Shown: positions 33,554 to 40,563, numbered from the stretch's first letter. The stretch is DNA of 64,000 nt from Nanobdellati archaeon (GCA_019429125.1 JAHYJO010000002.1:2695-66694); one strand, 5' to 3'. Translations and numbers: made by a program. The notes: generated from the sequence alone by a model not told the origin.

Positions 33554-33737
33554 GCAGGGGTCGCCAAGTCTGGTCAACGGCGCTGGACTTAAGATCCAGT
33601 GAGTCAGTCTCTACGAGGGTTCGAAATTAAAATAAGCCTTTAAAGTGTAAGTATTATCTTATGTTGTATGAGGTAGTGCTTGCAGTTGTCATTATTGTGG
33701 TTTAGGTTTTGTTTTTAAGAAAATCCCTTCCCCTGCA
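33554..33737 (+). tRNA. tRNA-Leu (anticodon TAA) interrupted by a ~98-nt intron within the T-loop
   Basis: The 5' part, 33554 to about 33625, is GCAGGGGTCGCCAAG...CTTAAGA...GAGGGTTCGAA. The T-stem 3' strand (CCCTT) and acceptor 3' strand (CCCCTGC) plus A73 lie at 33724-33737. The intact tRNA-Leu(TAG) at 35441-35525 is a close paralog. Confidence 0.75.
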
Positions 33738-33874
33738 CTCTCATTAAAAATATATTTATAAAGGTATTGGTATTAATTATACCTGTTCAATGTAATATAT
33801 GCATTGTCTCCAAGTACGTAACATTGGAATTATTGGTGTTGCGCGCGAGGGAAACCATATAAGGAGGTTATTAA

Positions 33875-34240
33875 ATGACAAAACACACGGGTCCTACAAA
33901 TCCAGTAACTATCAGTCTTATACGAGATTTAAGAAAACTGGGCGTAAAGGAAAATGCACAGATATGGAAAGATATAGCTATGTGGTTGGAAAAGTCTTCA
34001 AGACAGAGACCAGCAGTTAATCTATCTAAACTGGAAAAATTCTATAATGATAAACTAGAGATTATTGTTCCTGGAAAAGTATTAGCTGATGGTATTATTT
34101 TAAAACCAGTCAAAGTTTCTGCTCTTTCCGCATCGGGTTCTGCAATCCGTAAACTTGAATCTGTAAAAGGTAGTTTTACTACAATTCAAGAACTCATGAA
34201 AATGAATCCTAAAGGTAAAAACCTTAGGATTATAGTATAG
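33875..34240 (+). CDS. rpl18e: 50S ribosomal protein L18e
   Basis: AGGAGG SD 8 nt upstream; archaeal position after rpoD. Confidence 0.85.
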   Translation: MTKHTGPTNPVTISLIRDLRKLGVKENAQIWKDIAMWLEKSSRQRPAVNLSKLEKFYNDKLEIIVPGKVLADGIILKPVKVSALSASGSAIRKLESVKGSFTTIQELMKMNPKGKNLRIIV

Positions 34241-34249
34241 GTGTTTATT

Positions 34250-34660
34250 ATGATAGTTGATGGTACAGATCTTATACTTGGAAGGATGGCATCCAAAGTG
34301 GCTAAAGTTCTTCTTGCTGGTGAAGATGTAATTATAATTAATGCTGAGAAAGTTGTAATTTCGGGTAGTCGGAAGGAAATTTTTACAAAATATAAAGTCC
34401 GACGAGATAGAGGAGATATTTATAAGGGTCCTTTTACTCCAAGAATGCCTGATAGACTTGTCAGGAGAACTGTAAGAGGTATGCTTCCACGGGCAAAAGC
34501 AAAAGGTATAACTGCTTATGCTAAACTTTCCGTACATATTGGTGCTCCTACGTCTGTTAAAGGCACACCAGAACCAATGGATATCTCAAAAGGTAGTCTT
34601 AAAGATCAGAAATATGTCACTGTCCTTGAATTATGTCAGTGGCTTGGTGCGAAGGTGTAG
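34250..34660 (+). CDS. rpl13: 50S ribosomal protein L13 (uL13)
   Basis: MIVDGTDLILGRMASKVAK N-terminus. Confidence 0.9.
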   Translation: MIVDGTDLILGRMASKVAKVLLAGEDVIIINAEKVVISGSRKEIFTKYKVRRDRGDIYKGPFTPRMPDRLVRRTVRGMLPRAKAKGITAYAKLSVHIGAPTSVKGTPEPMDISKGSLKDQKYVTVLELCQWLGAKV

Positions 34661-34664
34661 ATTT

Positions 34665-35069
34665 ATGAAAGTTATAAATACTGTAGGTAAAAGAAAAAAT
34701 GCGGTTGCAAGAGCAGTCCTAAAGAAAGGTACAGGTCAATTCAGGATAAATAGGATTCCTTTTGATCTTGTTAAACCGGAATTATCACGCTTGAGACTTA
34801 TTGAACCTATAAGGCTTTCTAAAGCTGTTTCAGATATGCTTGATATTGATGTTGTCACAAATGGTGGTGGAACTACGGGCATGATTGATGCTGCAAGGCA
34901 AGCTGTTGCTAGAGGTATAGTCTCTTGGACTGGCGATGATGAACTTAAGAGTAAATTTGTAGCTTATGACAGGAATCTTATTGTGAATGACCCAAGAAGG
35001 AATGAAGTAAGTAAGCAATCACATTCCAGTATGGGTCCTCGTAGAAAGAGACAGTCAAGTAAGAGATGA
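34665..35069 (+). CDS. rps9: 30S ribosomal protein S9 (uS9)
   Basis: GKRKNAVARA N-terminus and C-terminal RRKRQSSKR. The track ORF started too far upstream. Confidence 0.9.
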   Translation: MKVINTVGKRKNAVARAVLKKGTGQFRINRIPFDLVKPELSRLRLIEPIRLSKAVSDMLDIDVVTNGGGTTGMIDAARQAVARGIVSWTGDDELKSKFVAYDRNLIVNDPRRNEVSKQSHSSMGPRRKRQSSKR

Positions 35070-35075
35070 TGTGAT

Positions 35076-35282
35076 ATGATTATACCTGTAAGATGCATGA
35101 CATGTGGCGCTGTAATTGGCGGTAAATGGGAAAAGTATAATGCGCTTATTGCTAAAGGCAAGACTCCTAAAGATGCGCTTGATGAACTTGGTATTCGTCG
35201 ATACTGTTGCAGAGGTCTTATGTTGACTCATGTTGACATTATTGATGAGGTTGCAAAGTTCAAGATTGTCAGTAAAAATTAG
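35076..35282 (+). CDS. rpoN: DNA-directed RNA polymerase subunit N (Rpo10)
   Basis: MIIPVRCMTCG...RYCCRGLMLTHVD zinc-binding motif. Confidence 0.85.
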   Translation: MIIPVRCMTCGAVIGGKWEKYNALIAKGKTPKDALDELGIRRYCCRGLMLTHVDIIDEVAKFKIVSKN

Positions 35283-35325
35283 GTAAGGATATTATATCTT
35301 TTATTTTTTATTTTATTATGTATCT

Positions 35326-38255: not shown

Positions 38256-38320
38256 ATTATCATTTTCAAAAATCAAAACTCTTAAAAAGCTTACCATATC
38301 TATTTAATATGTTAATCTGT

Positions 38321-38498
38321 GGTGAGGGTGAGCTAGCTCGGTTATGCTTGACGACTGTGGATCTTCAAACCCGGGTTCAAACGAGGGGGCTCCCTCAAGG
38401 CGCATTATATGTTCAGACCTTTGGTTGAATATAGATTATCTTTATCATTAATGATTTTTGCGCTAGAGATGTCTTTTCTGGAATTCCCGGCCCTCGCC
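38321..38498 (+). tRNA. tRNA-His (anticodon GTG) with encoded G-1, C73 and a ~100-nt intron in the T-loop
   Basis: G-1 plus acceptor GTGAGGG (38321-38328); anticodon loop CTGTGGA (38355-38361); T-stem CCGGG with loop TTCAAA at 38371-38381. The T-stem 3' strand CCCGG and acceptor 3' strand CCCTCGC plus C73 lie at 38485-38498. Confidence 0.65.
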
Positions 38499-38520
38499 CT
38501 TTTTTCTTTGTTTTTTTGAT
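38499..38520 (+). terminator. T-rich tract after tRNA-His
   Basis: CTTTTTTCTTTGTTTTTTTG follows the tRNA 3' end directly. Confidence 0.3.
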
Positions 38521-38653
38521 TTTAAATTTGTTTATTTTTTAGTGTTTTACTATTCCTTTATAATATTATCATTACTATTAATCTTGTTATATTCAATCTT
38601 AATCGGTTGTTGTACTGTTGCACTTTTTAGTAGTGTATTCGGTTTGACAAAAC

Positions 38654-38662
38654 CTTTATAAA
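38654..38662 (+). promoter_or_regulatory. candidate rRNA operon promoter (AAACCTTTATAAAG)
   Basis: Strong BRE/TATA-like match ~225 nt upstream of the 16S 5' end. Confidence 0.35.
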
Positions 38663-38886
38663 GATTTAGATTGCATAACTTATATTCAACTTTAACTGTT
38701 AACATTTGCGTACAAATCCGTGCGTAAAGCTTGTTTTTGTTGGTCTATATACTGATATGGACTGTTTATGAACTGAAGTGCCTCTTTGGAGGTGCGGTGA
38801 AGGTTTTTTTAAAGGTCGTTTATTAGATACAATGTTGGCTTGTTTGATATGAGTCAGAATAAGGTGAATCTTTGTTGGCTTCGTTA

Positions 38887-40357
38887 ATTCCGGTTGATCC
38901 TGCCGGAGGATGCTGCTATTAGGATTCGACTAAACCATGCGAGTTGCTGGTCTTCGTGACCAGGGCGAACTGCCGAGTAACATGTGGTTAATCTGCCCTT
39001 AAGTCTGGAATAATCTCGGGAAACTGAGGATAATGCTGGATAGGAGATTTGTTCTGGAATGATATTTCTCTTAAAGTTTCGGCGCTTAAGGATGAGACTG
39101 CACTGGATTAGGTTGATGTTAGGGTAAAAGCCTACCATGCCTATAATCCATAGGGGCCGTGAGAGCGGGAGCCCTCGGACGGGTTCTGAGATACTAACCC
39201 GGGCCCTACGGGGCGCAGCAGGTACGAAACCTCCACAATGCACGCAAGTGTGATGGGGGAATCCTAAGTGCTAGCACAATGTGTTAGCTTTTCTTGAGTC
39301 TAAATCGCTCGAGGAATAAGTGGTGGGTAAGACCGCTGCCAGCCGCCGCGGTAATAGCGGCGCCACAAGTGGCATCCATTTATATTGGGTTTAAAGCATT
39401 CGTAGCCGGTTTGATAAGTCTACTGTGAAATCCTATAGAAAACTATAGGGCGTGCTGTAGAAACTATTTAACTTGGGACCAGGAGAGGTCAGAGGTACTC
39501 CTAAGGTAGCGGTAAAATGCTCTAATCTTAGGGGGACCACCTGTGGCGAAGGCGTCTGACTGGAATGGATCCGACGGTGAGGGATGAAAGCTAGGGGAGC
39601 GACCCGGATTAGATACCCGGTTAGTCCTAGCTGTAAACGATGCGCACTTGGTATTGGAGATCTTTTGTGGATTTCCAGTGCCGAAGGGAAACCGTTAAGT
39701 GCGCCACCTGGGGAGTACGGTCGCAAGGCTGAAACTTAAAGGAATTGGCGGGGGAGCACTACAAGGGGTGACGTCTGCGGTTTAATTGGATAACACGCCG
39801 GGAACCTTACCAGGAGCGACAGCAGAATGATGGTCAGTCTGAAGGGCTTACCTGACGCGCTGAGAGGTGTTGCATGGCCGACGTCAGCTCGTGCCGTGAG
39901 GTGTCCTGTTAAGTCAGGTAACGAGCGAGACCCATATCTTATGTTGCTAATCTCTCCTTCGGGGGGGGTGCACTCATAAGAGATTGCCCGTGATAAATGG
40001 GATGAAAGTATGGGCTACGTTAGGTCAGTATGGCCCGAATCTCCTGGGCTACACGCGGGCCCCAATGGCAAGGACAATGGGACGCAACTCCGAAAGGAGA
40101 AGCAAATCCCCTAAACCTTGTCTTAGTACTGATTGAGGATTGCAACTCATCCTCATGACGCCGGAATCCCTAGTAGTCGAGTGTTAGCATCGCTCGGCGA
40201 ATTAGTCCCTGCTCCTTGCACACACCGCCCATCAAACCACCTGAATTGAGTTTAGGTGAGGTTTTATCCTATGGGTAAGATCGAACCCAGATTCAGTAAG
40301 GGGGGTTAAGTTGTAACAAGGTAGCCGTACCGGAAGGTGCGGCTGGATCACCTCCTA
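38887..40357 (+). rRNA. rrs: 16S ribosomal RNA (archaeal)
   Basis: Begins ATTCCGGTTGATCCTGCCGGAGG and ends GGATCACCTCCT. Universally conserved 16S blocks lie in between. Confidence 0.95.
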
Positions 40358-40456
40358 TGCCAAAAAGTTTCTGAACTTGTGATAGCTACTTCAACGTAGC
40401 ATTACGTAAACAGATTACGAAGCCGACAAAGCACCAATTTTTCAATTTGTTTAAAT

Positions 40457-40563
40457 GGGCTCTTAGTTCAGTTGGAAGAACGCTGCCTTTGCAAGGCAGA
40501 GGCCGCGCGTTCAATTTGCGTTTACCTTTAGGGTTTTAGCAAGAACATATCGCGCAGAGTCCA
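40457..40563 (+). tRNA. tRNA-Ala (anticodon TGC) in the 16S-23S spacer, with a ~34-nt T-loop intron
   Basis: Acceptor GGGCTCT with the G3:U70 pair; anticodon loop TTTGCAA; T-stem GCGCG with TTCAA at 40505-40514. The 3' T-stem CGCGC and acceptor AGAGTCC plus A follow at 40551-40563. Confidence 0.75.

Follow-up and report, generated by a model that had tools for sequence, protein, structure and literature searches.

Portable introns probably account for the interruption of tRNA genes at a single T-loop site in an uncultured DPANN archaeon and its close relatives

The 64,000-nucleotide (nt) stretch of DNA analyzed here, which we call the window (GCA_019429125.1, JAHYJO010000002.1:2695-66694, deposited as Nanobdellati archaeon), carries seven tRNA genes, three of which, those for tRNA-Leu(UAA), tRNA-His(GUG) and tRNA-Ala(UGC), are split within the T-loop. 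The window gives Rfam matches to archaeal 16S rRNA (38887-40356), 23S rRNA (40738-43650) and RNase P RNA (46274-46543) and includes a long ribosomal-protein cluster. The product of rpoD (32760-33545) is 100% identical to MBW6461587.1, an RNA polymerase subunit D assigned to a DPANN group archaeon, and its nearest relatives carry the database labels Nanohaloarchaea, Aenigmarchaeota or just archaeon. The source is an uncultured DPANN archaeon represented by a metagenome-assembled genome.

In the window, ARAGORN and Rfam found only four tRNA genes, all intact and all on the + strand: tRNA-Ser(UGA) at 30895..30979, tRNA-Glu(UUC) at 35325..35401, tRNA-Leu(UAG) at 35440..35526 and tRNA-Arg(UCU) at 47616..47691. 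The tRNA-Ser and tRNA-Leu(UAG) genes are intact in the relatives as well. Rfam added a poor partial match to the 5' two-thirds of the tRNA-Ala in the rRNA spacer. The interrupted genes were recovered by a custom scan for the 5' strand of a T-stem followed by TTCRA, a gap, and then the 3' strands of the T-stem and of an acceptor stem able to pair with an upstream 7-mer. A first, permissive version of the scan returned dozens of AT-rich false positives and was replaced by one with tighter pairing rules, in which ARAGORN had to confirm the spliced product. The final scan found exactly three interrupted genes in the window, also on the + strand and also discernible by reading the sequence: tRNA-Leu(UAA) at 33554-33737, tRNA-His(GUG) at 38321-38498 and tRNA-Ala(UGC) at 40457-40563. 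A scan for intact T-arms revealed no further tRNA in the window. Once spliced in silico, all three were accepted by ARAGORN as tRNA-Leu(taa), tRNA-His(gtg) and tRNA-Ala(tgc) with canonical cloverleaves and restored 7-nt T-loops (TTCGAAT, TTCAAAT and TTCAAAT, respectively). The window tally is therefore the one that the original prediction, made from the sequence alone, had given: three of seven tRNA genes interrupted in the T-loop, none at 37/38, and the tRNA-Ser, Glu, Leu(UAG) and Arg genes whole.

The tRNA-Leu(UAA) gene consists of a 5' exon at 33554..33625 (positions 1-59, ending GAGGG TTCGAA), a 98-nt insert at 33626..33723 with a GC content of 28%, and a 3' exon at 33724..33737 that supplies T60, the T-stem strand CCCTT, the acceptor strand CCCCTGC and the discriminator A. 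The tRNA-His(GUG) gene has a 5' exon at 38321..38381, which includes an encoded G-1 and ends CCGGG TTCAAA, a 103-nt insert at 38382..38484, and a 3' exon at 38485..38498 (T60, CCCGG, CCCTCGC, discriminator C). The genomically encoded G-1 of this tRNA faces C73, and its anticodon stem contains a C29-U41 mismatch. The tRNA-Ala(UGC) gene lies in the 16S-23S spacer. Its 5' exon (40457..40514) covers positions 1-58 and has the G3 of a G3:U70 pair, its insert (40515..40548) is 34 nt long, and its 3' exon (40549..40563) reads A59, T60, CGCGC, AGAGTCC and discriminator A.

Every candidate pair of splice sites was scored for a bulge-helix-bulge (BHB), the recognition signal of the archaeal splicing endonuclease, in which a 4-bp central helix is set between two 3-nt bulges, one on each strand, and is flanked by an outer and an inner helix. 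A BHB can be formed at all three window junctions, and the best geometry places the Leu and His inserts at 59/60 and the Ala insert at 58/59, in keeping with the earlier placement after the fifth or sixth nucleotide of the T-loop. The tRNA-His junction is a near-strict hBHBh' motif in which the T-stem (CCGGG/CCCGG) forms the outer helix, T54-A57 (TTCA) pairs with TGGA of the intron as the central helix H, the bulges are AA^C and AT^T, and the inner helix h' extends to as many as 8 bp. The tRNA-Leu junction is a relaxed BHB in the same register, with H (TTCG/AGAA) holding three of four base pairs and the exact cut ambiguous by 1 nt owing to a run of A residues. At the tRNA-Ala junction, H (GTTC/GAAC) has all 4 bp, the bulges are AA^T and AT^A, h' is TTGC/GCAA, and the GC-alternating T-stem that would serve as outer helix is slipped by one position. 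Folds with these motifs enforced lie only 1.2-2.3 kcal/mol above the unconstrained optimum. These features make it very probable that the three inserts are introns of the endonuclease-spliced type.

The same site is interrupted in related genomes. Close relatives were reached through protein homologues of RpoD and of an AP-endonuclease and then through the contigs that carry them; for each relative the survey covered about 5-15 kb around these two marker genes, some 120 kb in all. In the five close genomes, whose RpoD is 66-81% identical to that of the window, tRNA-Leu(UAA) is split at 59/60 without exception, by inserts of 100-105 nt (the L018 contig ends within its insert). The tRNA-Glu(UUC) gene is split at 59/60 at loci L011, L012 and L015, tRNA-His at the same site in L011, and tRNA-Arg(UCU) at 59/60 in L019 and L021. 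Eight interrupted genes of the relatives likewise give ARAGORN-accepted tRNAs once the insert is removed. Because orthologues in five related genomes are interrupted at the same site and the junction pairings are conserved with covariation, the T-loop inserts are not chance occurrences. The tRNA-Arg(UCU) of the closest sequenced relative (L019 5006-5240, L020 2790-2875) has two introns, one at 59/60 that resembles those just described and an unrelated 48-nt intron in the D-loop at 20a/21, with H formed by TTGG/CCAA and an inner helix of 8 bp.

More distant relatives (RpoD at most 49% identical), covered by RpoD scans of genome and metagenome contigs, lack introns of the ~100-nt kind; their syntenic tRNA-Leu(UAA) is split at 37/38 or in the D-loop, or carries interruptions at several positions. 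At two more distant loci (L023 and L024) the syntenic spots hold no tRNA. Two scans of viral contigs for the motifs of the ~100-nt introns gave nothing but one chance 19-mer (L022), which the covariance model did not support.

The inserts of about 100 nt align with one another in MAFFT whatever tRNA carries them, and by this measure the Leu and His introns of the window are diverged members of one homologous family. Its hosts include at least tRNA-Leu(UAA), Glu(UUC), His(GUG) and Arg(UCU), across six genomes. All 13 copies (11 full length, two cut by contig ends) sit at 59/60 and none at any other tRNA position, the D-loop intron of the L019 tRNA-Arg being unrelated. A covariance model of the family (R1) found the held-out Arg introns at 86 and 88.5 bits, and a second model built from relatives only (R2) recovered both of these window introns, with 79.6 bits for His and 33.2 bits for Leu. 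By these scores the His intron is a well-preserved member, and the Leu intron appears to be a degenerate, decayed, AT-rich orthologue. The 34-nt tRNA-Ala intron matched neither model; to judge from its sequence it is an intron in its own right, shorter, of the same mechanistic kind and with no detectable relation to the family. The original prediction had noted that the intron lengths differ (34, 98 and 103 nt, as measured here) and that the introns are not simple copies of one another, which holds for the Ala intron and fails for Leu and His, the two being one family.

From its 5' end, a family intron comprises a segment of one of two flavours (GAGGGGRCUCCCUC or CAACYGRUGCUCCGUUG) that can fold into a local hairpin or pair with the 3' segment of the intron; a helix of GCGCA with UGCGC; a bulged hairpin of 12 bp whose pairing is kept through at least 4-5 different sequences; a conserved, AU-rich single strand of about 20 nt (ATTATCTTTATC or TTGTTCATTAT); the 3' partner of the inner helix; the tetramer YGRA; and two bulge nucleotides. 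The consensus structure, obtained with RNAalifold and completed by hand with the central helix, has 33 pairs. Across the alignment 90.6% of its cells are paired, compared with 34-56% in controls in which the partners were slid by 1-3 columns, and compensatory changes occur in 16 pairs, compared with 4-8 in the slid controls; none of 500 shuffles reached the observed values. Ten of the 12 pairs of the interior hairpin show compensatory changes, and the exon-intron pairs T54-A, T55-A/G and C56-G are formed in nine of nine sequences. An 11-sequence MAFFT alignment (A2) was excluded from the pair counts, as it misplaced the T-loop of two 121-nt introns. These longer members (L011 12630-12750 in tRNA-Glu, L021 10903-11023 in tRNA-Arg) are extended by a hairpin of about 20 nt, similar to CAAGGCGAUUGCCUUG, that is inserted after the 5' module.

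All 11 full-length family junctions fit a BHB with an H of 3-4 bp and 3-nt bulges. The outer helix is the 5-bp T-stem, except in the L021 tRNA-Arg, where it has 4 bp and one mismatch, and the inner helix has 3-12 contiguous base pairs in ten of the 11; in the window tRNA-Leu it is broken at the second pair. The original prediction had named, as a result that would tell against it, a genome-wide survey showing only these three genes and no structural motif common to their junctions. The relatives instead extend the pattern, and the junctions have a BHB in common, to which the T-stem, T54-R57 and the YGRA at the intron's 3' end contribute.

No Rfam family matches the ~100-nt intron; the best matches were models of small nucleolar RNAs (snoRNAs), at 13.7-16.9 bits against gathering scores of 35-52. 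Readings of the interior as a C/D box RNA, an H/ACA RNA or a K-turn were tried and rejected, as no conserved boxes were visible by eye in the alignment and Rfam gave no support. A covariance-model match at 10477-10585 (18 bits) was set aside as chance, since it has many non-canonical pairs and falls within an open reading frame (ORF).

Sequence relationships within the family do not follow those of the host genes. The L011 tRNA-His intron is 83% identical to the L015 tRNA-Leu intron and 75% to the L011 tRNA-Leu intron, and only 61% to its orthologue in the window tRNA-His; the L015 and L012 tRNA-Leu introns, which are orthologous, share 57% identity. Since non-orthologous introns are up to 83% identical and orthologous ones only 57-61%, the introns have been exchanged between tRNA genes. 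Mosaics occur as well. The window tRNA-His intron is 73% identical to the L016 tRNA-Leu intron, with an identical 5' module, and the L016 intron joins this window-His module to a core that is 83% identical to that of the L011 tRNA-His. The two 5' flavours are scattered over Leu, Glu, His and Arg irrespective of tRNA identity. A truncated solo copy of the family stands outside any tRNA, just after tRNA-Ser(UGA) (L012 3578-3711, the same as L013 6-98); its 5' hairpin carries an insertion, its central hairpin is partly duplicated and its 3' end is missing.

Absences are as informative as presences. The tRNA-Glu and tRNA-Arg genes of the window are intact and their orthologues carry a family intron, which indicates two precise intron losses; the 5' exon of the window tRNA-Glu is identical to that of the interrupted L015 tRNA-Glu. 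Loss in the window lineage is the parsimonious reading, because interrupted genes occur on near as well as far branches. As far as sequence comparison can tell, the identities, the mosaicism, the absences and the solo copy show copying or conversion between tRNA genes, loss, and stranding. The suggestion of mobile intron spread in the original prediction thus stands in part: members of one family are found in four kinds of tRNA, Leu, His, Glu and Arg, and exchange among these genes has taken place, but the window genome itself shows loss and decay, its Glu and Arg genes being intron-less and its Leu intron degenerate.

Part of the machinery for splicing such introns is encoded nearby. The window opens with rtcB (1..1077, + strand; Pfam RtcB, E=8.5e-135), the gene for a 3'-phosphate RNA ligase, which is partial because the window edge cuts off its N-terminus; its presence had been predicted. 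RtcB joins tRNA exons and circularises introns. The rRNA operon also contains predicted substrates for the splicing endonuclease, EndA. The 23S processing stem (40718-40740 with 43650-43670, + strand) holds a strict hBHBh' motif with predicted cuts after 40730 and 43662. The 16S stem (38855-38880 with 40425-40446, + strand) holds a slightly relaxed HBh' motif, with H formed by GGTG/CACC, bulges AAT and AAT, and predicted cuts after 38868 and 40437, the latter 20 nt upstream of tRNA-Ala. Judging from these modelled BHBs on the flanks of both rRNAs, the window organism evidently uses a BHB processing system. With the 16S BHB, the 23S BHB and the tRNA-Ala intron, a single primary transcript would thus carry three predicted endonuclease substrates. 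Rfam found no 5S rRNA linked to the rRNA operon in the window.

We propose that the inserts are BHB introns, that those at 59/60 belong to a portable family, and that turnover of this family has gone towards loss in the window genome, with the Glu and Arg introns cleanly lost and the Leu intron decaying. In the precursor, the T-stem would serve as the outer helix, and U54-U55-C56-R57 would pair with the YGRA that ends 2 nt before the 3' end of the intron, giving the central 4-bp helix. One bulge would consist of A58-A59 and the first intron nucleotide, the other of the last two intron nucleotides and U60, and the 5' end of the intron would pair with the segment directly upstream of YGRA as the inner helix. 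EndA would cut in both bulges, and RtcB would ligate the exons, restore the T-loop and probably circularise the intron. A single portable family is probably the reason why 59/60 recurs. The part of the BHB that the exons supply, the T-stem and the near-invariant U54-U55-C56-R57, is nearly the same in every tRNA, and since the intron provides the rest, one intron could fit any tRNA without being re-tailored. At 37/38, in contrast, the exon strand includes the anticodon. Transfer may have occurred by gene conversion over the conserved GGTTCRAATCC flanks or by reverse splicing. The gene structures, the motifs, the homology, the covariation and the pattern of presence and absence are shown by the data; that EndA cuts and RtcB ligates these precursors, and how and in which direction introns were transferred, we infer.

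We put the probability of this explanation as a whole at roughly 0.8, and several points weigh against it. Minimum free energy (MFE) folds alone do not form the weak central helix. Five of the 11 family junctions (the window, L011 and L015 tRNA-Leu, the L011 tRNA-His and the L019 tRNA-Arg) have a central helix of 3 bp plus a mismatch and are therefore relaxed, and EndAs of the strict alpha4 or alpha'2 type have been reported not to cut relaxed motifs. No match to Pfam tRNA_int_endo, the family expected of EndA, turned up among the scanned ORFs of the window or among the genes annotated at the loci retrieved from the relatives. The BHB model does not require the strongly conserved interior of the family, the portability is a logical argument, and the sample of relatives, confined to the neighborhoods of two marker genes, is narrow.

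Four other explanations can be set against these data. The original prediction attributed the recurrent site to a lineage-specific substrate preference, such that the EndA of the clade favours or requires BHBs in the T-loop and introns survive only there. Thirteen of the 14 introns in the close clade are indeed in the T-loop, none was seen at 37/38 in the ~120 kb examined, and DPANN EndAs are unusual (PMC5829648). Archaeal EndA, however, recognises the motif and not the tRNA position (PMC3239211, PMC4090602), and the close clade contains a good BHB intron in the D-loop (the L019/L020 tRNA-Arg), the 23S and 16S flanks in the window present BHBs in quite different contexts, and distant relatives have introns at 37/38 and in the D-loop. 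Moreover, 12 of the 13 T-loop introns are homologous members of a single family and so do not amount to independent trials of a site preference. Such a preference is neither needed nor indicated, and we consider it unlikely. Less unlikely, yet still doubtful, is the idea that the ~100-nt intron is a functional small RNA gene, a stable circle or a guide-like RNA, whose spread and retention reflect selection on the RNA and not selfish copying. The pairing of the interior hairpin maintained through many sequence changes, the conserved AU-rich single strand and the truncated copy that survives outside any tRNA in L012 would all suit such an RNA. Against this, nothing in Rfam matched above noise; the window rRNAs offer no target for the conserved single strand, as a search of them for GATAAAGATAAT, the complement of that strand, matched nothing; the solo copy is truncated; and the loss of two copies and the decay of a third in the window genome argue against an essential function.

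The remaining two explanations do without EndA altogether. If the inserts had been left behind by integrative elements, or by other DNA inserted at the T-arm, the interrupted genes would be pseudogenes. The 3' halves of tRNA genes are common integration sites of archaeal viruses and plasmids (PMC4033280), but the inserts are gene-free, only 34-121 nt long and not flanked by a duplicated 3' segment of the tRNA, and the junction pairings covary. The exons, in turn, are perfectly tRNA-like across genomes with 66-81% RpoD identity, no His isoacceptor other than the split tRNA-His(GUG) is possible, and the tRNA-Ala lies within the rRNA operon; we regard pseudogenes of this origin as highly improbable. 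Still less credible, if only slightly, are self-splicing or self-cleaving RNAs, whether group I or group II introns or small ribozymes. A conserved secondary structure with covariation would be expected of them too; a length of 34-103 nt, however, puts the window introns far below the size of group I or II introns, Rfam yields no match to any of its ribozyme or intron families even at E<=10, and the conserved junction geometry is exactly that of a 3-4-3 BHB.

It is tempting to speculate beyond portable, protein-spliced introns and to suppose that the family acts autonomously as a T-loop-homing RNA, or that the excised circle is a functional RNA whose hairpin and AU-rich strand bind a partner. 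For homing, the excised element, circularised by RtcB, would display YGRA in a hairpin loop; the YGRA would pair with U54-R57 of an intron-less tRNA and so rebuild the BHB in trans; and the element would be inserted by a reversal of the EndA/RtcB reaction and later fixed in DNA by recombination. We hold this to be a long shot. If true, this would be the first BHB intron family with defined target recognition and a selected interior structure.

Other features of the window touch less directly on the interrupted tRNAs. Just upstream of tRNA-His lie two ORFs without a Pfam family, at 37278-38255 (325 amino acids, aa) and 36783-37199 (138 aa), and the corresponding position in L011 holds a 162-aa ORF that likewise has no Pfam match. 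Directly downstream of a gene for an M48/HtpX-like protease is a perfect tandem array (36577-36691) of 9.6 copies of the 12-nt unit TATATTTAGATT, with 100% matches. A 28-nt intergenic motif, ACAGTTCATTTTTTGAGTGATTTCAAAC, occurs at 12214-12241 (+), 50654-50681 (+) and 56003-56030 (-), twice exactly and once with two mismatches, where none would be expected by chance; one site precedes the L3 ribosomal-protein operon, another precedes a KaiC-like gene and the third is close to a DEAD-box helicase gene. The motif could be a regulatory element common to these loci, or a small repeat. Two adjacent ORFs of 138 and 111 aa at 9959-10714 have no Pfam match and are preceded by 1.5 kb (8490-9959) without an ORF of at least 80 aa; the region may represent degraded genes.

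The family resembles several known systems and coincides with none of them. The intron of haloarchaeal tRNA-Trp is a BHB intron of about 100 nt whose interior is a C/D box guide RNA and which is released as a stable, partly circular molecule. Like the window family it is long and has a conserved interior, but it sits at the canonical 37/38 in one tRNA and has recognisable C/D boxes, whereas the window family has neither boxes nor an Rfam match. The processing of pre-rRNA through BHBs employs the same motif and presumably the same pair of EndA and RtcB, and it is present in the window, but there it is the rRNA that is excised, and the tRNA T-arm is not involved.

At the site itself there is clearer precedent. 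Position 59/60 is a published non-canonical intron site (PMC4090602). [quoted passage not shown] The host is again a DPANN archaeon, the point in the T-loop is the same, and the signal is a BHB or relaxed BHB on the T-arm. Unlike the window family, with introns of ~100 nt in four tRNA species and six genomes, the tRNA-Cys intron is only 13 nt long and of the hBH (bulge-helix-loop) type, and the passages of PMC3239211 consulted describe neither a conserved structured interior nor a family shared by several tRNAs. In Thermoproteales, similar introns in different tRNAs have been read as transposition (Fujishima et al. 2010, as summarised in PMC4033280 and PMC4090602). There too, introns in tRNAs of different identity imply copying, and the BHB is transplantable; the differences are a crenarchaeal host with an (alpha-beta)2 EndA there, and here the single position 59/60, the single long structured family and the clear, precise losses. 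Both the 59/60 site and intron transposition are thus already known. The literature searched contained no description of a long structured T-loop intron family in DPANN archaea, and what is new is one long, structurally conserved family at one site in four tRNAs with a readable history.

The finding also bears on genome annotation. ARAGORN recognised none of the 11 interrupted genes as such, calling only the 5' part of the L021 tRNA-Arg, and of the interrupted window tRNAs Rfam found only part of tRNA-Ala. Standard tRNA finders miss these genes, and the DPANN genomes of this group therefore appear to be without tRNA-His, Leu(UAA), Glu, Arg(UCU) and Ala. The tRNA sets of new DPANN genomes were incompletely predicted, according to the authors of PMC5829648, who also associate DPANN EndAs with an L3 loop with disrupted tRNA genes. 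An intron-aware model, such as the covariance model built here, would remedy the apparent gaps.

The gain, movement and loss of archaeal tRNA introns are still argued from a few hyperthermophile genomes. The clade described here offers a clean natural experiment, in that a single recognisable family occupies a single site in four host tRNAs across six genomes. Vertical retention can be seen in it alongside swaps between non-orthologous genes, as can two precise losses, one copy in decay and one solo copy left stranded. The clade further suggests a rule for the repeated colonisation of the T-loop, namely that what the exons contribute to the splice signal is the T-arm, which is universally conserved.

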